From Lingula anatina (Eukaryota; Animalia; Brachiopoda), in the NCBI GenBank assembly GCA_051362555.1, contig CM120640.1, positions 24,166,225 to 24,230,224 on the forward strand: 64,000 nucleotides of DNA, in the 5' to 3' direction. How positions within the stretch are numbered: the stretch's first letter is position 1; each line of letters begins with the position of its first letter. The notes under the pieces are model-generated. The model saw nothing but the letters and a program-made list of their open reading frames with translations. It ran no database searches and was not told the origin of the DNA. Shown one piece after another: positions 3,744-38,600 of this stretch. Both the position numbers and the translations under genes were made by a program.

Positions 3744-6700
3744 TAAATACTAGTAATTAAGATCTTAAACATAGCCAAGGTGAAAAAACTGCAAAATACT
3801 TTCAACTATATAAGCAAAATTATCATAGAGAGAAGGTAATCACAGTCAAACCATCTGCAAAATACCTACAATATATCTCCCCAGATTTGGATGGAAAAAT
3901 CCATTGTTGTTATAAAAATCCATAAACGCTTGCCAGGTTGACAAATACATGATCCATAATCACTATATATCTGACAGTGATACACAGCTCCAGTTGAACT
4001 AACCTGATAGAGTGGTTTACCTTTTTTAAAGCAATTAGTGTTCCTAATGTGCCATTCATTGAATTGATGGACTGACACTAATTTGACAGTTTGCTGAGTG
4101 GATTTTAACAATTGTTTCACTGCTGGGCTCAATACTCAGTGATAAAAGGTAAAGCTACAGGCTGGAGGTTTTTAGCATTTTTTAAGGAACTCAGTGCAGT
4201 GAAGATCAATATCCAATTGATACCTCATTTAATAATGTGCAATGCTCTATAAGGCAGTTTCACTGTGCTTTTCAAATAAGCATGTTCTCTGTAATTGAAA
4301 TATTGACTGAAACCTCAATTCTTATAAATAGACATATAACAAAACAGCCATGATAGCCTTAAACTTGTTTTGGTCAATGTCAGTGGGAAAGCCAATTTAT
4401 GGACCTTGCATTGCAGCATTATTATTAAGCTCTGCCTTCCATAACCTTGAAAAAAAATTTTGTTTTTTTCACATTGTAGACAAACAAAGTGTTTTTCTCT
4501 TTAATCAGTTTTTATCATTGTAAAGCACCCTGAGTTTCAGAGGTCACTGGAACTCGCTGCTATTGTTATTGGCATGCTGTTAACAGAGGCAAGTTTCCAG
4601 TGATCTCTGAGACTCAGGGTGTGTCCTGGCGTACAACTGCAGGAATCTGCCACGTCTTTATGTCTCAATATAATCATGTGTACTGCTCTTTGATTTCAAG
4701 CTCTGAGTACTTTCAACTCGTGACACAATGCCACCTGCGTCACTCTGAGAATGATGATGATGGCTGATCAGGTCAAAATATTTCATGTGAGTGATTAGTT
4801 TTTACTGAGTTTGATCTCTATCCTCTACCAAACTGGTAAAACTATTTTGACAAGGTTGAAACTCTTTGTGCTGGGAAAGTGATCTCATAAAATAATATTA
4901 AAAAAAATGTGAATATGTACTATTGTGTAAAAGACTATAATTCTACAACACTTTAAAGAAAACAATCAGAAAAGTATCTGTAGTCTGCCATTATATTTTC
5001 CCTAAAACTCTCTTCCAAATCTCACTTGACTTAATGCTAAATCACAAGACTGATGGCAATTATGTTAATTATGGATCGTTCCTATTATTTCACATAACCA
5101 CACTGATAATATACAGGATAATCTAAATTATTGGCATTTCAAGTTATAAATGTCTAAATTAATACTTTTTGGATAGTGCAAAGCTCTTTGAGGTATGGTT
5201 TGCTTATTTCTATCTTTACAACTTTACAATCTTGACAAAACAAAACTTTCTTGTTCGTGCCATCATCATGAAGGGCTGGGAATGGACTAAGAAATATCCC
5301 AATATCAATCACTGCTATCATTACCACCTCATCCCTATCTAAAGGACAGCAGTCCATCTTTGTTCACTGACATGATGTTGAGCTGACCCATAGCAACATA
5401 TCCAGCAAGGCTAGCAAATGTACAGAAAATATTGTATGTACGATTGACAACAGGCAAAATTTTAGTGATGAGATATAACTTACTATACAGCTGACTTTAT
5501 GAGAGTTCACTTTACAGAGATGAAAGCAGACCTTTAAAAAAATAAAACAAAACAAAACAAAAAAAAAAAAAAAAAAAAACTAGAAATGAGATAAATCCAT
5601 AGACTTATTTCTAACCTTAAAACAAATAAATATTGAATATAACAGATCAAATGAAAATAACAAAAATCAAATGTCATCACAATGACAATACCATAAAACC
5701 ACCTGATTCAGAGGCAGGTAATCCCTAAATGCTCAGTCTTTTCAAAAAAGAAGAGCTGCAACACTCTTTCCATCCACACCTCCAAATTAACATAGGATCT
5801 TAAAAAGATTATCCACGATTTCCAGTAAGGAAGAATAAAAACGATTTCTATCTCATTCTGATATTGTAAAGACAACCATGATTTCCAGAGTTTTAATGTA
5901 ATTTTCTTCAATCTGATTTAAAGGATAGCCATCATTTGTATTCTAAATTGATCTTACTCTCCTGGGAAGAAGAACAAAGAGTACAGAAAGCACTGTATTT
6001 CAGGATATTATTCATTGATTGCTCCTGGGACTAGACCACTTTCACACTACTTACCGTACCTAGATGCACTTTAATCAGTGTTTAAAGTCTATTTTCCAGA
6101 CAAGTAATTTAGCAATATTTTTCTTACAGTATCTTTGATAAACATGAAAGTACTCCGATAATTATGTCCACCAGCACACACTAGAAAACAAGCAGTTTAT
6201 TTTGTACACAAAATTTAAAATGCAATCACTTCCTCTACAAGCATCTAGATGTTATTAAATTTCTTTGCAATTTAAAGGTTATGAGTAAGCCAGGGTGATT
6301 GGAGAGATACTAGAAGTTAAATGACAGCTTATTAATCCTAATGTCTTCCAATTGCAATAATGCACTTCCTCCTGGATAACTGTCATTCATCTCAAACCTA
6401 GCCTCGTATCTCAGCGCCATTTCCACACAGAAAAAATACTCAATAAACACGATCCTAATCTGCTCTTTGTGTCTTAGCCCCAGCCAAAATAATTATCAAT
6501 AAGCCTGTTCATGATTCCAAGGAATTATATTTACTAATGATTTTAGTGATATTTATAACTTACTTTGGAAAACAAAAAGCAAAACAGCGATATTTGGCTC
6601 TTGTCTCAAAAGCATAATCAGGCTGAATGCCCACAGGTCGTTGGATGTTGGTAGGTCATTCTGCCGTTTAGCACCTCCAGTGAGAATCGTCCATAGGTCA

Positions 6701-7301
6701 ATCAACAACCTGGGGGCATTCAGCCTGGTGATGCTCTTGAGACAAGAGCCAAATATAGCTGTGTTTCACTACAGGAGTCCAGAGAAATTTTTATATATTT
6801 TTTGTTTGAATAAAAGCACAGAGGTACAACGAAATCGATTTTTGTTGATTCGCAGCAGTAGGGAATACTTACAGGTGTGTGTAACAAACTCAATAATGTT
6901 CCCTGGAGTATTGCTTTAACTGACAAAGAATCTGTAAGGCTGCTAACCTCATTTTTTATTTCATTTTTTACCAGTCTTTTGACTAAGTCCCATGAGCATA
7001 TTGGGATTGTCTTGACAAAGGGGTGTACTTTCACTGGAGATAACAGCCCATTAAGGTATGGCAGATAAAACTCATGATAGGCCAATCATTCTTAAAAGCT
7101 CCAACACCAAGACAACAAAGTAGTAGAGCTATCCAATTTTAGCAGTCTAACTAAAGCCCATACACTTTACACTGACTTAAAATTTTAGGTGAAACAGGGC
7201 CTTTGACTAGGAAATAATTAATTTGAAGTTACAATTCCTAGAACTAATCAAACTCCCAACAAAAAATATGACTAAGAATATTGGAGGGAATACCAACCTT
7301 A

Positions 7302-7560
7302 GGCTTCGTTCACATGCAATGTCTATTTTCTATTTTCTATTTTCTATTTTCGGTATGTCTTATGATCACGGTCTGTGCACTGAATATCCCGCGGCGTAAT
7401 TACTGGCAGCGCGAGCCAGTTACTTATAGTAACTTATAGTAACTGGCTCGCGCTGCAAGTAATTACGCCGCGGGATATTCAGTGCACAGACCGTGATCAT
7501 AAGACATACCGAAAATAGAAAATAGAAAATAGAAAATAGACATTGCATGTGAACGAAGCC
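7302..7560. mobile_element. Near-perfect palindromic MITE, PIF/Harbinger-like
   Basis: 259 bp; arms of ~125 bp with one visible mismatch; termini GGCTTCGTTCACATG...CATGTGAACGAAGCC; TTA on both sides (7299-7301, 7561-7563). Confidence 0.85.
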
Positions 7561-8439
7561 TTAGTAAATCAAACCACTAGATTTGATGGTTTGTTTACCT
7601 GATACAATGCTATCTTTACAATGCTGCTAATGTCTCGTTCAAACTCGAACATTCAACATTCATCGTTCACTTATGACACAAATTTTTAATTTCTGATTCC
7701 ACATTTTTTTTCTACGTACACCTGAGTCTGGGAACTAACTAATCTGCATGCATGCAGTCTACAATCTAACTACTTACTACCTAACTACTTAACTATATTT
7801 CTGAAGGGTTTATAGTAAACGTAAATAGTCATATTCCATGATACTTAAAAAAAACTACAGTACATATCTATGATTTGTTACAACAAGTGTCCAACTGGTC
7901 ATTCCAACCTATTCCAAAATACTGGACCTTTGTAACAAAAGCAATTGATATCTTGCCAATTTGAGACTAGAATTTATCTTCTGAGAATTCCCTAGCACCC
8001 AAATTCCGTAAGTTCCTTCTGCTTCAATAACCCTTCTACTTCATTAAACAAACTCAAGATCTCTTTATACTTTCAATTAAACAATGACTTTTTTTAGGGG
8101 GGGGGGGAGATTCTCAGTGGTGTCTGCACAAAATTGAAGCTTACATTGAAGCAACATCAGTATATAATAATTCTAAATAACTGAAACATACAATTTCATT
8201 TTAATTAAAGATGACTGATTACAGTCTCATTAAAAATAATAAAGTTGAAAGCATGCTTTATATTGTTTTATAAAATCAATGGTACAAAACCACTTTGTTT
8301 CTTCTCTCTTTTGTACCTATAATAATTGGATAAATCATAAAAGGCAACCTTGTTGTATTTTTGTCCCTAAAAAGTTTCAATCCCTCTTGTTATCCCTGAA
8401 TAAAAGAATACAATAACATTCATTATCTAGCATATCTTA

Positions 8440-17723: not shown

Positions 17724-20700
17724 GCATAACAGACAAACTCAGCTATTACTGAAATGTGTGCAATACTGTGTAAACACCCAATTCTCTTTTCTGAAAAAGA
17801 AAAAAGGACTGACATAGGACAAAAAAAATGTGCACAAATAAAAAAGACAATACAAGGAATGCAGTACTAAAGGGGAGCCATTAGAGCTTGGCCTTACCAT
17901 CATCCTGGTTATTGTTTTTTCTTGAAAAGAAAGATCACCTAGTTGTATCAGTGAACATTAACAATGTCTGCAATCTGCATTTGTCAACATGTACAAACAT
18001 CTGATGCACTATTGACTTCTTCTCTATTTAAATATTTTGGTACTGGTATTTTCAAAGGCCTATTCTCTCTTCTCTAAAACAGGAACCATTACATCTCTTT
18101 ATTTAGACGTTTTTTCACACACTATTATCATCCTTACCTGGTTGAGCAGAGCAATTTCCCTTTCCAATCTTGCAATCTGTCTGTCTCTGCCTTCCAACAG
18201 CTCCTTTAGTCTTTGGTTTTCTTCTTTTTCTTTTGCCAATTGCTGCAAAAGAGACACAACTTGCATGTATTTTTTTGTTAAAGTATGATATATTTGCTTG
18301 CAAATAAGACATTTCTTTGTGTAAGAATATTTAAATTATGCCTCAAATTACTTCCTAGTGTTCAGGGTAAATTAACAATGAAAGAGCTAATGGAATCATT
18401 ACAGAGAGATTCAACAGCACATTGAGTTAATTAATTCAGAAACCCATCAGACCCGCCACCATAGAAAACAGACATTTCAAAACCTAACCTTCTCCAACTC
18501 TTTGTTTTTCTCCTGCAATTTAAGCTCCTGCTGAGATGGACGCAATGATGGCCTGGAGTGACTAGAGTCAATGTCTATCAGATTGGTTTTATAACTAAGC
18601 TTGGCAAAGCCAGAAGAATCACGGTCAAATCTATTAAATGCTGACAGAGAAACTCGGCCTCCTACAGTGCTGGCATGGCCTCTGTCTCTGTCTTGGTTAT
18701 TAAAGGTTGTCCTGGCCTCCTCTGTCTTCTGAATTCTGCTGAGTTCTTTTTCTGGTGAATGCTTTGCATAAGTTGATTGGCTTGTTGATGCGGCCGATTG
18801 CCCAATGATGGTGAGATTGGTCTCTGACTGGCTGACAGTGCTGTCATAGTCCTGGTTATCTTCTAAGTCAGCTTCGAGGTCAGAAGGACTGAAAATATCA
18901 TAAGCAGAAACTACATGTGAATAACTTAACAAATTAATATTTAATTTCATATATAACTTTCAATTTCAATGGTTCTGCTTTTAGTAAACTTCCTTCAAAT
19001 TCTATTTACCTTGTTGTATTTATCTTTATTTTCAATACTTAAACCCTTATTGCACTACTGGCTTTAAAGTATCTTGAAAAGATTTCCAGTAACTTTTCTT
19101 ATGTTCACCTTTTATTTCTGCACCTCGAGGCAAAGGATTTTGAAAGTCGGTTCTGAAATAAAAACAACAACAAATCATATTCTTTGCTTCATAAAACACA
19201 ATTTCATTAAAAAGCTGAAAATGAATATACTTTAGTATGAATCATCCATATCTAATATCCTCATGTCAAATGACTGAAAAAATTTTAAATGTTCATAAGT
19301 GCTATTAATTAAAAACTCCACCTTAGATATTGATTGTCTCCTGTGTAGCTGTGGTTTTTGTGCTACAGCAACACTGATACCAGGTATCTCAAGGAGATCT
19401 TGCAGATAGCATGTGTAGATACCAAACCCAATTACCACTCAGTAACTCGCTTTACTGTTACCAATTTTCTCACCCTGTCCAGACATATAGGAACCAAATG
19501 GGAGTAATCCAAAGAGAAATGAAAAGTGACAGTTTTGCTCATTATGTGAAAGCAAAGGCTGCCGCTAATATTTAGGTACTAAGTTAGTTTAGGTCTGGTC
19601 CACTCAGACAGCCTGGTGCCTGATTACAATGGCAGAATGAAAATTGGAAGTGACAAGTTCTGCCCATTATGCAAAAACAGTGTCTGGTTCAAATCACACC
19701 TCTCACAAAATTTGACATTTAGGAAAACCATCAGCTTCCAACTGAATACGGTTCAGTCATTTTGATTTTATGATAAAATCACTTTTTAACAAACATAAGA
19801 TCTAATATTCAATGAAAAGCAGTTTTAATGGAAATCCTGTGCACCTCTCATTCTAGTTAGGAAATGTTAAAATAATTCTAATAGGTGCCAAGAAAACTAA
19901 AAAAGTGTTTGATATTCTGAAAATATAATCAGTACATCACAATGATCTAGAGGTTCAATTATAATAAAACTTGTTCTTCAAGTCTCAGCACAAGGTGGAG
20001 ACACATCAGCAATTCATATTGTAAACAGCAGAAGAAATTGCCTTGAATAAACCCGAGATGAAATGTGTTTCGACTTTCATGCAGATCTTTTCACCTCAAG
20101 TGAAAACACCTTCAAGCAAATGAGATAAGCATGCAGAATTTCCTCCACCCAAACCACAAAGACTTGGCTCTCAAGAGAGGGAAACTCTTATCCAGAAAGA
20201 AATGAAAGCACATGTGGGCATTCCTCGCTCTCCCCAGACAAAGAGGCACCACATGATCCAGCCATCTGAAATGGTGTGGAAAATTAAACTTGACAGAAAT
20301 GCTCATTATGCAGCTACTGTCGAGAAATGACCAATGAGAACCCAGGTGTAAATTTCAGTGGTTTCCATCCAGTTTACACTACCTCATATCACCACCAAAT
20401 GAACATGACAGATTTGCTGATTATGCATTTACGGAGAGGAGCTGACCAATGGAAAACCCCTGTACATATAGATTGCTTCTTGTCAGCTCAGTCAGTTTGC
20501 CTCAGTGCACATCGACACTAATGTGACTTGACAGATATGCTCATTATGCACTTTCAAACGTGTGATTGACCAATACCAAGGCAGGTGAGCACTTAAGGGG
20601 TTTTCCACATCAATATTCTGAGGGTTCCCCAAAGAAACTTTGGAGCTGAATAAATTGGGCAGAACTAATATTGGTTTGTTACTGTTTGGAGTGAAATGCA

Positions 20701-28956: not shown

Positions 28957-30499
28957 GATAATGATGATGTAGTCAATATATATCCTACTTGCAAATTGTC
29001 AACAAAGATCAAAATACCCTAATCATAACTCCGTCGGACAAGAACAGTGATTCTATTACAATTAATATGTCACTTTTTCCATAATCAGTACATACTCATT
29101 AGAAGTGAAGCTTGGAATGAACGACAAATACACTATTTTCGAAGGTAAACACTGCCGCGCTCACCTGCATGCTTTTCTCAGCCTCGATTTCATTCATTCG
29201 CCCGAAGGTCACAGTGAGGTCAAGGTGATCAAAACGTGTTTCACTCACTCAGGCCCTTCGCTGTTTTTCCTTTCTTGTGTCTATTTTCATTGAATAACAT
29301 TTTGCGTTTCATGAAAATAAAATGTGATTTCAAAGAATGCATTATGTCATAGCTCAAAAGTAACGAAAACTAAGGATTCCGCAGTTTTACCTGAATAATA
29401 AATCATTTGAGTGTGGCAGCCATGCCGCATTTTCCAATTTTGCTCGTTTTCGCCTACACGCATCTAGGAACGAAAGAAAAAAGAAAGCAGTTGCCCTCTG
29501 CTCTGAATGCAGATCAGCTAACACAATTTTAGAAATAAATGTGCGTTTGAGAGGAACGGGTGGTATTTTGGATATTTGTTGTTTTTATTATTATTACGGC
29601 ACAGGTGTGAATTATTGGCAGGAAAGTACATTAAAACATTTTTATGTTCGAAAGGTTCAAAAGTTATTAAGTTCACAGGTGTGAATGTCATCTCAAAGGA
29701 CACTATTTTAACAACATCTTCAATTCAGTGAGAGCCCTTTCTGTTCTTATTTGAATGTCTCTGGAACTGGTCAATTGTACTTCATTGTAAATATGGAAAT
29801 ATTTTTAAAATGTCCTTTAAAATAATTACCATAGAGGAAAGAGGGAGGTTGTAGTCTCTCAAACAATTCTAAGATTAAATAACTTTTTTTTTATTTAAAT
29901 GACTTTGAAGGTAGTGTTTTGCAAATTATACTTTGTGGTCAAAAGATTTTCCTCACCACTACACAAAGAAAATGAAAAGCAAAATGAAGATGTGGTTGGT
30001 TGGATAGAATGTAATTTTTAATTAATCTCCAAAAATCTGGTTGCTCTGATTCTTGACTACCCCTCTCCCTCCAGTGGAAAACCTGGATCTGAGACCTTGC
30101 ACTTTTGAACACTATGCAACAATTGCCATGTAGTTTTCTTGGTTTGTTAGCAGTAATAATATATCCAAGGGATAAGATGGCCATACTCACAGATCTTACA
30201 AATTGATAGAATCTGGAATTATTAAAATTGCTTTTTTAATAGAACTGATGCAATTTGCAGGTTTCAAAACAAAACTGGATAGTTTAGAAACAAGTAAATG
30301 CAAGGGAGGAAAGGGTTGAGTACAACTGCATTCCATTTTACACAAATTGAAATACCCCTCGTCCACTCTTTTCAGCATTTTAACATGTTATAAATGACAG
30401 CCATATAAGCTTGAATAGCTCAGGTTAAACAGTATTGTGAAAACTGCAAATGGCATAATAAGAAACAACAAACTCAAAAACTTCAAATGCCAAACAGGG

Positions 30500-30505
30500 T
30501 TTAAT
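30500..30505 (-). terminator. Candidate MYPT1 distal poly(A) signal (ATTAAA)
   Basis: ATTAAA on minus followed by a G/U-rich tract (gtttttgagtttgttgtttc); one of several possible sites. Confidence 0.35.
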
Positions 30506-30884
30506 TACTTGATAGATTCATTGCTAACATCTACTTGATAATGCATCAAACATCCCCATGGCCACAGAGAGCCATGAGATTATCAACTGACAAAGATTGT
30601 TATGCTACATTCAGGTATAGATTTGATATTAAACTTAACAGGGAATACATAGCATCTACACACTTGTGGCCCGTTCATGCATATCTCTCAAGTGAAATAT
30701 TCCCCTGGTGGTACCAGATTAAAGCAGCTGTTCTATAAAAAAATTCACATGACTAGAAACGAAAAGTGAAAAACCCCTTTTCAGCAGCCTCAAACTAAGA
30801 ATCAACTCTTCCATGACAACCAGCTATACACAAGTAAAACCAATATAACTGCTTAACACAGAACTTATGCCATAAATCTGCAAG

Positions 30885-32587
30885 CCTTGGGTCCAGCGTG
30901 TCACCCAAGGAGGCTAACCCATATCATCATGTAGTCTGTTCTTCTTTGTAGTCAACAGGACAACAACGAAGAACATCACACCAATAGTACAGAAAGCAAC
31001 TGGTGCAGATTCCTCAAACCGTTAAGTGCTCACAGCAGTTTTAAAATAATAATAATAATGTCCCTTGCATGACAAGAAAAGGAGCAAGGTCTTAGTGGTT
31101 CAACAACCCCAAAGGCCCAACACCCTCTTCCTACCCTTGGAGCAAAGATGCTTCTTCTCTCCATAGGTCCCATGAATATCAAAGCCAGTATTTTGTATGT
31201 GCACATCATTTTGGTGAAGACAGCTGCTTGCATTGATTAAAATAGCACTGTCATGGTGTTGGTAAAAAAAATTTCTGAAAAAAGTTTTTAGATACAAGTG
31301 GTGGTGAATTAGTTTTTTAAGGTGTCCAGAACAAGTTTGCAATTCAAAAAATCCCAAAAATGATATAGCCTGACAAAATAAAGCTAGGATACCAGGTGCA
31401 TGCATGGATACAATTTGAAAGCCCAGCTAAGATGCTGTGGTGGCAAAGAGGCACATTACCAGATGTTTCAACAAGAACCACTTCAAAGTCATCAAAGCCA
31501 GGCTTTCACAATAACAACAAGTGACATATCTATGAGAGATGTTTTACTGGTGTGCAAACCCAGGATCCAACGTGTCACCCTGGGAGTCTGAAACCTACAG
31601 AAACTAGTGCACACCAGCCAAGTCATCTCCAGATATATGACACATGTAAAAAGAAATACCCAATAATCCCAAGCAAACCAAGGTGATTCGGTTCCCACCC
31701 TGCTGCAGAAAAGGTGGTGCCATGTAACAATTGGCATTTTGCTGAGCAGCACACAGAGACTGTCTGCCAGGCATCCTGACCCCACTAACTCTGGTGGTGG
31801 ACTGCTGTGGGATATGGAGAACCACAGTACAAACTAGAGTGTCTCAACACAAGCTTTAGGTCCAGCGTGTCACCTAAAGACACCCTGTAGAGCTGGCAAA
31901 CACTGAAACCAGTCCCCAGGGACTATCATGTAGCAGTGACACACGGTTATACCGTGGTGTTAAATCTACATACTTTGTTATAGTGCCACTTGATGCTGCT
32001 GAGCATGTCCTTATCCTGTCAAGCTATGCGTCACCTTAGATCCAACGTGTCACCTTAGGAAGTCAACAATGGCAACAAAGCCACTGCAACTTAAGTTCAA
32101 CAGGTAGGCATAGAAAAGAAGCATTAGTGACACCATAGAAATTATGCAGACTCCGAAAATTCATTAGGTGCCTCTTAATGAATGTACATTTACATGAGGG
32201 GACATATCAAAAGGACACGAACCCCTGATGCAAAAGTACATCACATTCTTGATGTTCTATTTTTTTGCTTCCACCTTGAAGCAAATAATGCCTTAGTGCA
32301 GAAACAAGTTGCCTCACCACTGTATGCAAACTCTAGGTCCAACATGTCACCTAGAGAGACAGCACTGTCATTGTCCATATGACCCAACCATCGACACTCT
32401 AAAAATGTCGCTGACAGAAGATGCCAGATAGACACAAAACAGGTGTAACTAATGCATACATATAATACAACTCATCCTGGAATATGTACAGATGATGATT
32501 TCAATGAGGATCAAGCAACAAACCACTGTCACTATTGGCTATTTTGTCATAAATGCACAGGCCCTAGATCCAACATGTCACCTAGGG
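30885..32587 (-). repeat. Array of six dispersed 26-nt stem-loops, probable structured RNA elements in the MYPT1 distal 3'UTR
   Basis: Copies at 30885-30910, 31559-31584, 31854-31879, 32034-32059, 32331-32356, 32562-32587; 8-bp stems with compensatory changes; loop GACAYGYUGG on the minus strand. Confidence 0.85.
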
Positions 32588-35534
32588 AGTTTTCAGAAAA
32601 AATTCCATATGACGATAAACAAAATTCCTGCTGAAACAACTGATGTGCATCAATAAGTCATAGTCAGTAGACTGCCAGTGACATGTTTCATAACCTCATG
32701 ATATAATCACCTGTTTGGGTCATGCAGTATGAAATGAGAAAAGTTATCCAAAAGGAAAACCTTGTGATTTCATACTGCATACCTCCAATCACAACCCCCT
32801 GACAAATATAAATACCAGTAGGAATTGTGCAACATTTAACAAATACAAACATCCAAAAATGTCAACAATACAATAAAATTGTCTACCTTCACTACTTGTA
32901 AAAATACTTGACAAATTCATTTGCATCAGAAAGGGGTAACATGTTCAACTGATATATCCCCCTTACAAACAAATGTACACACATCAATATAATACAGCAT
33001 AAGCCAATATGTACAATAACAACCAAATAAGATTCACAGTTGTCATATAGAGACTCTGGGGTATCTTTCTTTTGCACTTCAGTTCATACAACGTTATTCT
33101 TCCACTGAGATCAGAATCCCCTTGAAATTTCCAGCCTATATTGTCTTCTTATATCTCACCACTGTTCAATCAATACTGAGATCAGTATCCAAAGTTTTAT
33201 CTGTCTTAGAAACTTGGCACAAATAGGATTTACGAGTGCAAAACTGACCGTATGTATATGAGTTGCAAGTACACCGATTCTACATTTACTGTCTACCAGC
33301 TATCTTACAAAATGTATAGTACATCATACATATAATACAGCCTGGGGTTTATGCATTCCCCAGGTACAAAAATAATGCTATCAAAAATAAAAGTTCACAA
33401 GATTTATGTATTTACAAAGAAGCATTTTACATCCAATAACAGTCAGGGACATAAATATAATAACAATTTGTCCATTAGGTTTTATGATAAAATCTTAAAT
33501 AAGCTGGTTGTCATGGAATAATCGTGCTACAGAGGCTGTCTTATTATAAGGCCATTCAAATCCCTTAATATTATAACTTTAACTGGTACCACCAATTCAA
33601 ACACCCTTCACTACACACCCAGGCCACATAAATATGCTAACTACATAAATTAGCAAGGATGCATTTAAAGAAAAAAAAGGTTTGTATGCTACATATATGA
33701 AGCAATATCCATTTGAACAGTATCATTGCTGTTAACTGCATGCTTCAGCTGCTTATAAAACACACTGACAAAAGACGGGATGAAAACTGCACCTTCCATA
33801 TACTTAGGAATCTGTGCATTCACACACTGGAACTTCATATTTTTTATCCAATGTTATTACGTTTCTTCACTCCCTACGTGGAGAGCCGTAATCCATTAAT
33901 ATTTAGCCTTATCGACAATACTGACATGAAGGAATTCATCCACTCTGTTCGGTGACATTTGTGGAAGCCATCATGACAAACAACTCCAATTCCACTGTAC
34001 TTTGGGTAGTAAGCCTCCAATCTTGTACAGAGAAGTGTGCATTCAATCCCCAGAGGAAATGGGAGGTACTGATTGATCAATTTTGTTTAGAATTTCAAGC
34101 TTGTTTTTAATTTTTGAAGCATGTGATAAAAAACAGCCAAAAAAGCACTTATTTACCAATAGACAAAGCAAAATCACGATTTAACATAAAAGATTAGTCA
34201 ATCAGTTTGGAATTTATTAACCCACAGGAGATTTCTCCCTTTGACCAATGCACACTTAAAAACTTGCAATGACTTGCTGATAAATACACCTTTCCTTTCA
34301 AATATTCAATGTCTTAACAGCTCCAGACAAAAGTAATTCATAGTCGTCACATAAACAACAATGCAAACTCCAATTGCTGTGCAAAAAACATATTGCACAA
34401 TGTACTAGGTTATAGCCAAGATATAGTAAATATCACTTAGATCACATCTGAACAGGATTGTAGCTAGTGCAGGGTGGGTTGGGTGGGAGTGGCACGCCTG
34501 TTTTTTATTTCCAAGTTTCATTTTTAACTTTTTCTTTCAATCCATTGTATGAAACACTTGAACTGCACATAATGCACAACCAAATGTAATTTTTAAAGTG
34601 CATAAATGATGTCTCAAAATGAACTAGACCTAGAAGGAAATTGATATTATTCTGCGTTTTAATATTTTCACAACTGTTACTGTGCACAGCATATGTACAG
34701 CAGATGCTCTCTGCATCAATAGTGAGTGAATCAACAATCTTCCACTTTGCTTAGTGCGGAAAGGTGTTTGTAATATACAAAACATACACTTATATAGCAC
34801 TAGGTAAACTGTTTTAATTATGCTCTCCCCTTTTTTTCTGAGACAGTTTGTAATACTAGCCAAAATGAGCATATTACGTTCGAATATTTTATAAAATAAA
34901 AACATGAAGTGCTAAAAGAAATTAAAGTAGGGATGCTCTGGCCGGGTGAGCCCAGGATTATTTTAAAGTAATTTCAGTGGTCATCTTACAAACAGTCAGA
35001 TTCCATCAGAGAAGTGGCCATGGTGTTATCCAGATTTCTTCCATATCAAAAGAGATGCCACCCCACCCAACTCGGACCAGCCCTGTGGTTGTCAACACTA
35101 TTTACATGACCAAACTTGAGATTATTTTATCTGTACAAGGAAGACTAGCACTCTATACTCTTCATATATTAATGCAGTAGAAATTCACGAGAACTCCAGT
35201 GTTCTCACAACTACAGTCTACGGGCCTCTTTAATATGGAGGCAGCTATGGCTCTCCCACCTAGTCCAGCCGTATGTTGCTGGGAGAGAGGAATAGCTACC
35301 TCCTGAAGAGGTCATCCGACTCTGCTGTTGGTGATGGCAAATTGTAAGCTGATGTGATGGTAAAATGACAAACAGTCAGTGCTGTATACATTTTTTAGTG
35401 AAACAGTGACCATGGTTGCATGAAGTCCAGAAAAGAACACATCCATTATGGATGTGTCTGGGAATGAGCAGGGTTGGATGTAAGTCTGTGCAAATGAATA
35501 AAGAGAAGTCTTTCGGCACAACTCTTCTTTTTTA

Positions 35535-35621
35535 TCATTTTGATAATTTGCTAATAACTCGTATTAATGCTCCATTCTCTTCTTTTAGTCTCTGGTTATC
35601 TTGCTTGAGTGTTTCCATGAG
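35535..35621 (-). CDS. PPP1R12A: MYPT1 canonical terminal leucine-zipper exon
   Basis: LMETLKQDNQRLKEENGALIRVISKLSK*, TGA followed by TAA. Confidence 0.93.
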   Translation of the reverse strand, partial: LMETLKQDNQRLKEENGALIRVISKLSK

Positions 35622-38600
35622 CTAGGGAATAAAAACATCAGAAGATGATGAGCATACTACATAGGAAAATACATCTTCTTCTGTAAATCATTTACTTATA
35701 AATCTGTTATTATTCTAAGTAAACAACTGTTACATTGTCACTATTTAATAAAACACCTATATGTAAAACATCCATATCAGCAACTTACACAAAAGGGGAT
35801 AAAACTCACATTAACTTATTCTTTACCATTATTAATCAGTTATTAAGTTATAATAGTAACACCAATGCAATTAACTAAATACAAAAAAAATAAAAAATAA
35901 AAAAGGTCTAAATTTCTACCATCAAATAATGTCTTGTCAACAAAACATTGCAATTAAAACCTAAGCATATGCCTCACTAACACTGCAGTAAGTGGGAGAA
36001 AGTGTTGATAAAGGATGACCTACAATTTTGAACATGTGAAAGGCTGTCATAATCATAAACAAGAAATTCACATTTAACAAACTTGCAAAGGATTTGAAGA
36101 CATCACAGTTATTCCAAAAGATTAAGAATTAGAGGGAAGAAACGAGGAAGCATGCTCTATTTTGACAAATTTGTTCTTGTTAAAAGTATCCCATTCAATG
36201 ATTTTACTTCAATGAATGAGGAACTCTCTTTCACCATGGTAATGCAAATTTTGGAAAGAGAAAAAAAAGCAGGCAAAGAAGGCAAGACAGATGGGCGTGC
36301 CAGATTCTATCAAATCTTCATTGATACATTGGATTACATAATTTTAACCATTCTCTTACTTTTTGTTGTTTATACTTTTCATTTTTACTTTTCTCCTGCA
36401 GCAAGCAGAAATCTCCACAACAAAGCATTATTAGGTAAAAAACAATTGAAAACAGCTGTTTGCAACACTGATTCGGTTTTGGCTTTCACTCTGAATGGGA
36501 TGGCAAAATCTGAAGCATGCACAAAGTAACGGGTCTTGCAATTGGTACACATGTATATACAATGCACTAAGACACACAAGGCAATGAATGACCAAAAAAT
36601 GACAATGACTACAAACAGAACCCCTGTTTAAAGATACAAGTACATCATAATTACTTAATCTGGAATGTGTGTCATAGGTTCACCGTACATGCATCTAATC
36701 TGAAAAATTGCATCTAAAACAAGTAATAAAAAAAAATGCATGCTGCATTGGATCAGAACTTTCAACAGATCACTGGGTGCAAAAATTGGGGTTGGGAAAC
36801 TCAAGCACAGAACTGTGTGTTACCTAATGTTTGGATAGTCTGGCAACAACCCGAGTCAAAGCCTTATTTTCCTCTTTTAATTTTGCATTTTCTGCTTTTA
36901 TACTTTCCATTTGCTGAAAAGTACCAGAGAGAAAAAGAGAGAATATAAATATGTGAAAGAATGAAAGGCCCACGTGTGACACCCAGTTAAGTTGCAAAAA
37001 AAGGTGCAAGGGAACTGAAATGTAGGGACTGTACAGGGGGACCACTAAGCATATGCTGGTCATCTTTCAAAGGATCCAGCAACTTAATGTAAGACACCAG
37101 GAAGCCCTACTGGTTTCAACAGAGATATAAAAGGTGGATGAGTCTAGTACATCTGAAGAAATGAACTGAGAGAAAACAGCTGCCTGTGTGACAAGACACT
37201 GCACTCAAGGTAAAGCATAAATAAATAAATAAATGAAGTCAAGGAGCAGCCTGCTTACCTTTAATTCTTCTTCATATTCTGATAACTTTCTTTCTAGTGC
37301 CCTTCTTTCCTGTAAGATCCAAGTATTTAATAAATGCAACAGAATTGCTCTAATTTCATCTCATGTGTAATTGAAAAGTAACATGTTACCTTACAATGTC
37401 TCTGATGTTCTTAAGGGTAACTGAATCTCTTGATGGAAGAAAAACAAAAGTACACAAAGAATACAACAGAGAACTACAAATTGTTGTTAAGCTTAATCGT
37501 AAACTTTAATTAGATAATAAGATACCTTTATGCTTCTTTCAACAGAGATCCGTTATATTCTAATTTTATGTGCTGAACTCTCTATTACTTACTCTTTTAT
37601 CTGAAGTTGAACTATCTACCACCCGTGTATCGTTCTTTTGTTTTAGTTTTTCACTCTCTAACTTTGACTCTGACATTTCTTGTTGCAGCCTCTGAATTTC
37701 TTTCCTAAGTTTCTCATTTTCTGCTTTTTCTTCTTCATATAACTGTGGAAATAAAATTCAATAATGACACTAAACCTAAATATACATGTAGGTAAACCAT
37801 CCATTGTTACAAAATGGACAAGAAAACTAAATAATAAATATATCTCCTGCTCAACTGGGAATATTTTAGAAAGAAAAAAAAAACACTTACCATAGCAATA
37901 AATATGCAGTAAATTAAACACCTTTTTGCAAAAACATCTACTCTCAAAATCTGAAAAGCTGGACTACTTAATTCAAAATCAAAGAGTATCAGCTAATCCT
38001 ATTATGCAGTAAACTGCAGGTCAACATATACAAACTGCACGGAAACTATAAACAATCACAGTGAAGTGAGCAAAACTGATCATAACTGAATTAATTTGGA
38101 AATTGAACTTGAGTGAGACATTCACATAATAAAAAAAACTTCACTTCCAATTTGATGAAAATCCATCAACTACAGAAGATGGTGCATGGCTTAAAAAAAA
38201 GGACAGAAACATATTATCATTTCCACAGACACAGGCTTAAATCAGAAAAGTAATTTCCTCAACATCAACAGATTGATTTCAACCCACATATTATTTCAAA
38301 GGAACTTCAAAGGAATTTAAAAATTCACTTCAACAGTTATTTAAACATTAATTCTTGCAAAGAAAATAGTAATCAATGAACTGAGGACTGAGGAATTATG
38401 TTCAGAAAGAAATATGAATATTGAAATATGAAACATGCAACAGGTTTAAACCATAAACATTTCCACTGATCACCTGAAAATGCATTGCATGGTCAATTCT
38501 GATACACAAAAACATTATTTACTTTTTTGTATTCTTTTGCACTGTCTAAGGAGGATGAGCTGGATCGTGTATAAGCTGAGTATGAAGCAGGTCTTTCTCG

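Follow-up and report, generated by a model that had tools for sequence, protein, structure and literature searches.

The 64-kb window, by which we mean the whole stretch of Lingula anatina DNA analysed here, carries MYPT1 followed on the same strand by PAWR (28594–63987). The exon upstream of the region of interest is 100% identical to Lingula proteins named PPP1R12A (MYPT1), the Lingula PPP1R12A exons follow one another in the window from 63987 to 37259, and the downstream gene matches Lingula PAWR at 100% identity. Both genes also lie on equally long contigs in two gastropod records, and the order MYPT1–PAWR is that of vertebrates as well. Inside PAWR (19527–20548, minus strand), five copies of CATAATSRGCA-N3-5-TGTCA were found (0 in 100 shuffles), three of them with ATTGGTCA upstream; judging by its motifs, the cluster looks like an enhancer combining what we take to be homeodomain and Meis/TGIF-type sites. 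Elsewhere in the window, MITE-like long inverted repeats are present at 7298–7564 (127-nt arms, 98%) and 6581–6765 (63-nt arms, 89%).

The last coding exon of MYPT1 is followed by a long 3' UTR (Table 1), whose expression was assessed with raw short RNA-seq reads from eight runs (4 + 4), the first four including three stranded libraries. In four runs, the interval from 35621 to about 30400 is covered without a joint, UTR reads are spliced to the exons at 36824 and 37259, and a coverage gap of ~0.7 kb separates the end of the UTR from PAWR. In the three stranded libraries, UTR reads come from a single strand, that of MYPT1. The four further runs end near 30500, with depth stopping in the 30494–30579 bin in three of them. 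Because coverage is continuous, spliced, one-stranded and ends near 30500 at an ATTAAA, the hairpin array described below, 2.9–4.6 kb past the MYPT1 stop, lies in the distal part of a spliced ~5-kb MYPT1 3' UTR, a span given by short-read depth and not by single molecules. The original prediction had assigned 30.5–35.5 kb to the MYPT1 3' UTR on the minus strand, and splice joints, stranded reads and continuous depth bear this out.

Five read starts of a single run fall at 34478 (34478–34509, minus strand), 26 nt past an AATAAA, and no drop in depth was seen near this position. It is a possible minor proximal poly(A) site, use of which would remove the whole array. Junction reads for inclusion and skipping of the alternative exon at 36824–36913 number 39/19, 0/11, 6/23 and 0/5 in four runs; since this exon is spliced to the last exon, the array is present in both C-terminal forms. 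The peptide of the alternative exon is similar to the C-termini (ENRALTRVVAK) that MYPT proteins have in vertebrates and gastropods, and by this likeness the two-ended C-terminal switch of MYPT1 looks ancient.

Table 1. Features of the MYPT1 3' end in the Lingula window, in the order of transcription
Feature	Position	Strand	Evidence or remarks
Alternative MYPT1 exon	36824..36913	-	own stop at splice donor; spliced to last exon
MYPT1 last exon, coding part	35535..35621	-	leucine zipper PF15898, 48.8 bits (cut-off 32.4); splice joints
MYPT1 (PPP1R12A) 3' UTR, ~5 kb	30480..35534	-	3' end approximate; unbroken RNA-seq depth, no internal joints
Hairpin 1	32562..32587	-	8-bp stem, loop GACAUGUUGG
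Hairpin 2	32331..32356	-	loop GACAUGUUGG, then UUUGCA
Hairpin 3	32034..32059	-	loop GACACGUUGG; A-A mismatch in window, U-A in RNA reads
Hairpin 4	31854..31879	-	loop GACACGCUGG; flanking pairings predicted as competitors
Hairpin 5	31559..31584	-	loop GACACGUUGG; pair 7 G.U, read as G-C in two runs
AU-rich block	31347..31391	-	83% over 47 nt common to L012 UTR; between last two hairpins in both
Hairpin 6	30885..30910	-	loop GACACGCUGG, then CUUGCA
ATTAAA, likely main polyadenylation signal	30500..30505	-	read depth stops nearby

Six hairpins in the distal UTR

The sequences and coordinates predicted for six hairpins were all verified on the minus strand. Each element is 26 nt long, with an 8-bp stem closed by a U-A pair and a 10-nt loop. 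The core RGGTGACAYRYTGGAYCY has six matches in the window with up to two mismatches allowed, all of them exact and on the minus strand, while 100 shuffles of the window gave a mean of 0.10 matches and a maximum of 1. Covariance models likewise recovered all six hairpins in the 64-kb window and, beyond them, no match below E 0.26.

The claim that the stems differ in sequence and stay paired through compensatory double changes was upheld. Pairing holds in 47 of 48 stem cells, the sole exception being the A-A mismatch that had been noted in one copy and was found in copy 3 only. Both-sided changes occur at four stem pairs among the six copies, G.U stands at pair 7 in three of them, and the covariation score is 0.447, compared with 0.250 ± 0.050 after shuffling. 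The spacers are unrelated, as had been supposed, with identities of 27% and 25% in the 50-nt flanks. Taken singly, the hairpins have nothing unusual in their stability (z −1.45 to +1.22 in 56-nt context), so the signal of the array lies in repetition and covariation, not in energy. For copy 4, the predicted pair probability is at most 0.03 once at least 40 flanking bases are included, the stem being displaced by other pairings.

Natural variation touches two of the stems. In all seven runs covering position 32056 (one with only two reads), the base read turns the A-A of copy 3 into U-A, which raises its predicted pairing from at most 0.06 to at least 0.88; the window base represents either a rare allele or an error in the assembly. 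In copy 5, G.U becomes G-C at position 31565 in two runs. Both hairpin variants among those listed (40 of 209 and 40 of 99) thus preserve or restore pairing, as 19% of possible changes would, and no variant among those listed touches a loop. Depletion of variants in the hairpins was not significant (2 of the 41 variants between the first and last hairpin among those listed, with 3.8 expected; P 0.26).

Arrays on other contigs and the consensus hairpin

Metagenome contigs were scanned with the 18-nt core only, which gave 122 loci, 80 of them taken with long flanks. Most loci are single chance matches; same-strand arrays of 2–7 copies were found on nine other contigs (seven copies in L061, five each in L009, L011/L012, L018 and L045, four each in L003 and L042/L043, three in L060 and two in L103). 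Of the 17 seed matches in multi-copy loci, 14 have intact pairs 2–4, versus 14 of 109 elsewhere. In the 12 loci chosen (the arrays plus three single copies), every one of the 23 matches to the loop alone that lie outside the seed pattern is paired, compared with none of seven in the 109 other loci; the pairing rate of the array loci is inflated by the fact that they were picked after paired copies were seen. The 65 prokaryote loci (186 kb) hold single matches with no second loop match within 1.5 kb, eight of them with pairs 2–4 paired and one of them (L130, below) turning out to be animal-like DNA, and viral contigs gave one unpaired match, attributable to chance. With the hairpins masked, most arrays are unalignable, the related ones being L060/L103, L042/L045 and L095/L098/L106.

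The last exon of MYPT1 was found upstream of the array, on the same strand and with PF15898 above cut-off, in L012 (24 of 27 residues identical; array 3.7–6.0 kb past the MYPT1 stop) and L045 (22 of 27 residues; array 3.6–5.7 kb past the stop). These are two of the three contigs with more than 3.6 kb of upstream sequence, the third being L061; five further array contigs carry at most 2 kb upstream, and L103 is 381 nt in all. As the scan was made without MYPT1, the linkage between array and gene is independent of the search, and the array, far from being absent from orthologous 3' UTRs, recurs past the MYPT1 last exon in both. Among 120 proteins compared, the L045 exon has its nearest match in a gastropod protein (25 of 28 residues; crustacean 23), and the L012 exon singles out no taxon. 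PAWR was not found beside any array on the other contigs. About 2 kb past the last hairpin, L042 (2991–3095) and L045 (8864–8971) share a 109-nt block, 87% identical and containing AATAAA, which is likely the conserved 3' end of these UTRs.

In view of two contigs, the motif may not be confined to MYPT1. In L061, no MYPT1 leucine-zipper exon was found in the 4.8 kb upstream of the seven copies, and none of the eight frames scanned, out of nine long ones, matched Pfam; the array could be that of a different transcript, or the contig could be a chimera. On the array strand of L061, ~4 kb upstream (~6350–6450, minus), there is a promoter-like stretch with a short exon-like piece ending in GTAAGT. 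The other contig, L191 (L130; G001:C48), is an 11-kb AT-rich, animal-like sequence in a bin titled Ca. Thiodiazotropha, a group of bivalve gill symbionts, and is likely host DNA within a bacterial genome bin. Its one perfect hairpin lies within a 157-nt block of which an inverted duplicate, flanks included, is also present; the loop of that second copy is changed, and repeat remnants surround the block. No MYPT1 exon was found on the 11 kb of this contig, and the copy may have come from capture of part of a UTR, or it may be a repeat carrying the motif.

Removal of three unpaired matches and three near-duplicates from 51 loop matches left a set of 45 copies. Across this set, 95.6% of stem cells pair, double changes occur at all seven variable stem pairs, the stem pairs are the top mutual-information pairs, and the covariation score is 0.597, compared with 0.228 ± 0.019 in a shuffle that ignores relatedness and at most 0.189 with partners slid. 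The loop and its closing pair keep the consensus U-GACAYG-NN-GG-A throughout. Nine positions are invariant (U8, G9, A10, C11, A12, G14, G17, G18 and A19), position 13 is a pyrimidine and positions 15–16 vary (UU, CU, UC, AU, UA); the loop search tolerated one mismatch anywhere, and in paired copies all mismatches fall at positions 15–16. The 5' arm is 91% pyrimidine at positions 1–4, which gives a purine run on the 3' arm, and a conserved YYUG stands just 3' of the stem, with UG three bases after it in more than 90% of copies. A longer stem between the 5' RYYU and 3' YYUG flanks has no covariation in the 45 copies. Spacing between hairpins is irregular (50–1293 nt).

The pattern of wobble pairs bears on the strand. 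Over the 45 copies, G.U outnumbers A.C by 34 to 3, and by 11 to 2 at pairs 1–4, which lie outside the seed constraint; moreover, the sense strand is predicted to fold better in 42 of 45 copies. The G.U excess and the better sense folding together point to RNA structure on the MYPT1 strand, as originally predicted from the Lingula copies.

Comparison with known RNA elements

In the 64-kb window, no Rfam 15 family matched at gathering threshold; a search of 30.2–35.7 kb gave weak matches only, none at the hairpins, and eight array loci gave three weak miRNA matches far below threshold. In keeping with the original prediction, which saw no match to the IRE, SECIS, Smaug SRE or histone stem-loop consensus, the hairpins belong to no known family.

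The 3' UTR of transferrin receptor mRNA carries several short IRE hairpins for one reader protein, and the MYPT1 array resembles it in having several short hairpins per 3' UTR. The IRE loop CAGWGH occurs in 0 of 45 copies, however, and the MYPT1 hairpin has a 10-nt loop and lacks the bulged C. The Smaug/SAMD4 element and the loops bound by U1A and U1-70K, the latter of ~10 nt, are likewise cases of a stem presenting a base-read loop. In the Smaug element CNGG directly closes the stem, whereas here CNGG occurs in 7 of 45 copies and at the 3' end of the 10-nt loop; the U1A and U1-70K motifs occur in none of the 45, nor do those of Rbfox and Pumilio. Unlike a cluster of pre-miRNAs, with long stems, a conserved arm and a variable loop, the hairpins have 8-bp stems, variable arms and an invariant loop.

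The closest likeness in layout is to the MAT2A hairpins hp1–6, the substrates of METTL16 (PMC10578476, in part), which, like the Lingula hairpins, number six in a single 3' UTR and combine a fixed loop with a free stem. Clusters of this type are present in Lingula (six copies), L012 and L045 (five each). The likeness extends to layout only: the gene is different, no copy lies near the stop codon (the first is at 2.9–3.7 kb), and the METTL16 loop UACAGARAA, as given in that part of PMC10578476, is found in 0 of 45 copies.

The original prediction had also likened the inner CA/UG pairs and their triloop to the constitutive decay elements (CDEs) bound by Roquin, in which a YRN triloop on a stem of 6–8 bp is read by shape (PMC6294493, in part). 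In sequence YRN does fit positions 13–15 in all 45 copies. The inner pairs themselves found no support, the A-U pair being broken without compensation in 5 of 45 copies; the contiguous stem under the triloop is 2 bp in 40 copies and absent in the other five, so this part of the prediction failed.

We found no description of such a hairpin element in a literature search that left most subscription journals outside its scope; exact matches to the string occur in papers whose titles point to other subjects. One supplement of PMC6288889 contains no Mbs/MYPT, and PPP1R12/MYPT is absent from the main text of bioRxiv 10.64898/2026.10.24.761493, the supplements of which could list a human counterpart. 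The hairpins thus form a conserved and apparently undescribed family: its kind, the loop-read 3' UTR array, is known, and its loop and gene are new.

Candidate function and alternative explanations

We consider it almost certain that the array functions as an RNA element in MYPT1 3' UTRs. As to what it does, our preferred reading, to which we give a probability of roughly 0.55, is that it controls the stability or translation of MYPT1 mRNA through a putative loop-binding protein. This reading is favoured by its nearest precedent, the distal hp2–6 cluster of the MAT2A 3' UTR, in which redundant hairpins act additively on mRNA stability (PMC10578476, in part). The hairpins would be repeated, redundant sites for a loop-reading protein that sets the stability or translation of the message and, through it, the dose of myosin phosphatase; decay or translation as the output is suggested by analogy with the distal MAT2A cluster only. 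A free stem combined with a fixed loop suggests base-specific reading of the loop, which the stem would merely present. The GACAYG and GG(A) blocks would be read base by base, with the two free positions facing away, and this division of the loop points to two reading surfaces or to one protein wrapping the loop, with the 3' YYUG as a putative extra contact. The irregular spacing speaks for redundant sites that are independent of one another rather than for a single folded unit of higher order, and the multiple copies may provide avidity or a graded response.

Rather unlikely, in our judgement, is that the array is a localisation signal, with a loop-reading adaptor that would couple MYPT1 mRNA to a motor or an anchor and so bring synthesis of the phosphatase subunit to contractile structures. 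The anatomy and conservation of the array would fit such a signal equally, long 3' UTRs are known to localise mRNA through hairpin signals whose effect depends on copy number, and the pyrimidine-rich 5' arm would supply a purine run on the 3' arm. However, we found no such element in the literature on MYPT1 mRNA localisation, and signals of the dynein type are recognised by the shape of their helix, whereas the MYPT1 hairpins combine a fixed loop with a free stem.

It is less probable again that an enzyme that modifies or cuts RNA has the loop as its substrate, for instance by methylating the invariant A in UGACA, with feedback like that between METTL16 and MAT2A. UGACA fits the DRACH pattern in 45 of 45 copies, and the MAT2A layout of a fixed loop, a free stem and about six copies (PMC10578476, in part) is shared, but the loop of METTL16 substrates is missing throughout and DRACH is short and common. 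There are also no read pile-ups or joints at the hairpins, though poly(A) libraries would miss most cuts.

A DNA-level origin, in which the hairpins would be what is left of a small DNA element, mobile or duplicated, with stems kept by palindrome repair and without any RNA function, appears very improbable. It draws on L191, where the duplicated block lies among repeat remnants and one copy has a changed loop. Against it, flanks are unrelated within and between most arrays; homologous flanks such as a transposon or satellite family would have were not found in the window (25–27% identity), L191 being the exception. Within an array the copies share one strand, and wherever the exon is seen this strand is the MYPT1 sense; G.U prevails over A.C both overall and at pairs 1–4, and the window has no further copy.

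We give slightly less credence still to loop–loop kissing through the palindrome ACAUGU, which would make the mRNA compact or dimeric with no protein reader involved: 29 of 45 loops contain this self-complementary motif, but it is broken in the other 16, including four of the six in the Lingula window, and kissing leaves the invariant GG(A) unexplained. Least probable of all is that the hairpins are Roquin-bound decay elements, given that the YRN match is offset by the lack of a 6–8 bp stem (PMC6294493, in part), by mean probabilities of only 0.30 and 0.19 for the inner pairs, and by an invariant loop sequence that shape reading would not lead one to expect.

Recurrence in other animals, together with the lack of a match to any catalogued family, makes the array a likely undescribed landing pad for a protein. 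Few short mRNA elements that covary across distant animals are known, namely the IRE, SECIS, the histone stem-loop and the MAT2A hairpins, and each of them has brought to light a dedicated reader together with a regulatory loop. The sharp consensus and the natural compensatory variants make a putative reader of the MYPT1 hairpins identifiable by pull-down with loop-mutant controls, and a covariance search of animal transcriptomes could map the age of the element and any other target mRNAs. The array sits on the targeting subunit of myosin phosphatase, a central brake on contractility. Tentatively, by analogy with the iron–IRE and SAM–MAT2A systems, and with confidence well short of an even chance, it may be the RNA half of an ancient lophotrochozoan, perhaps wider bilaterian, feedback circuit, in which a putative loop-reader would couple actomyosin tension or cGMP/Rho signalling to MYPT1 mRNA and in which further mRNAs may carry the motif, as L061 hints.
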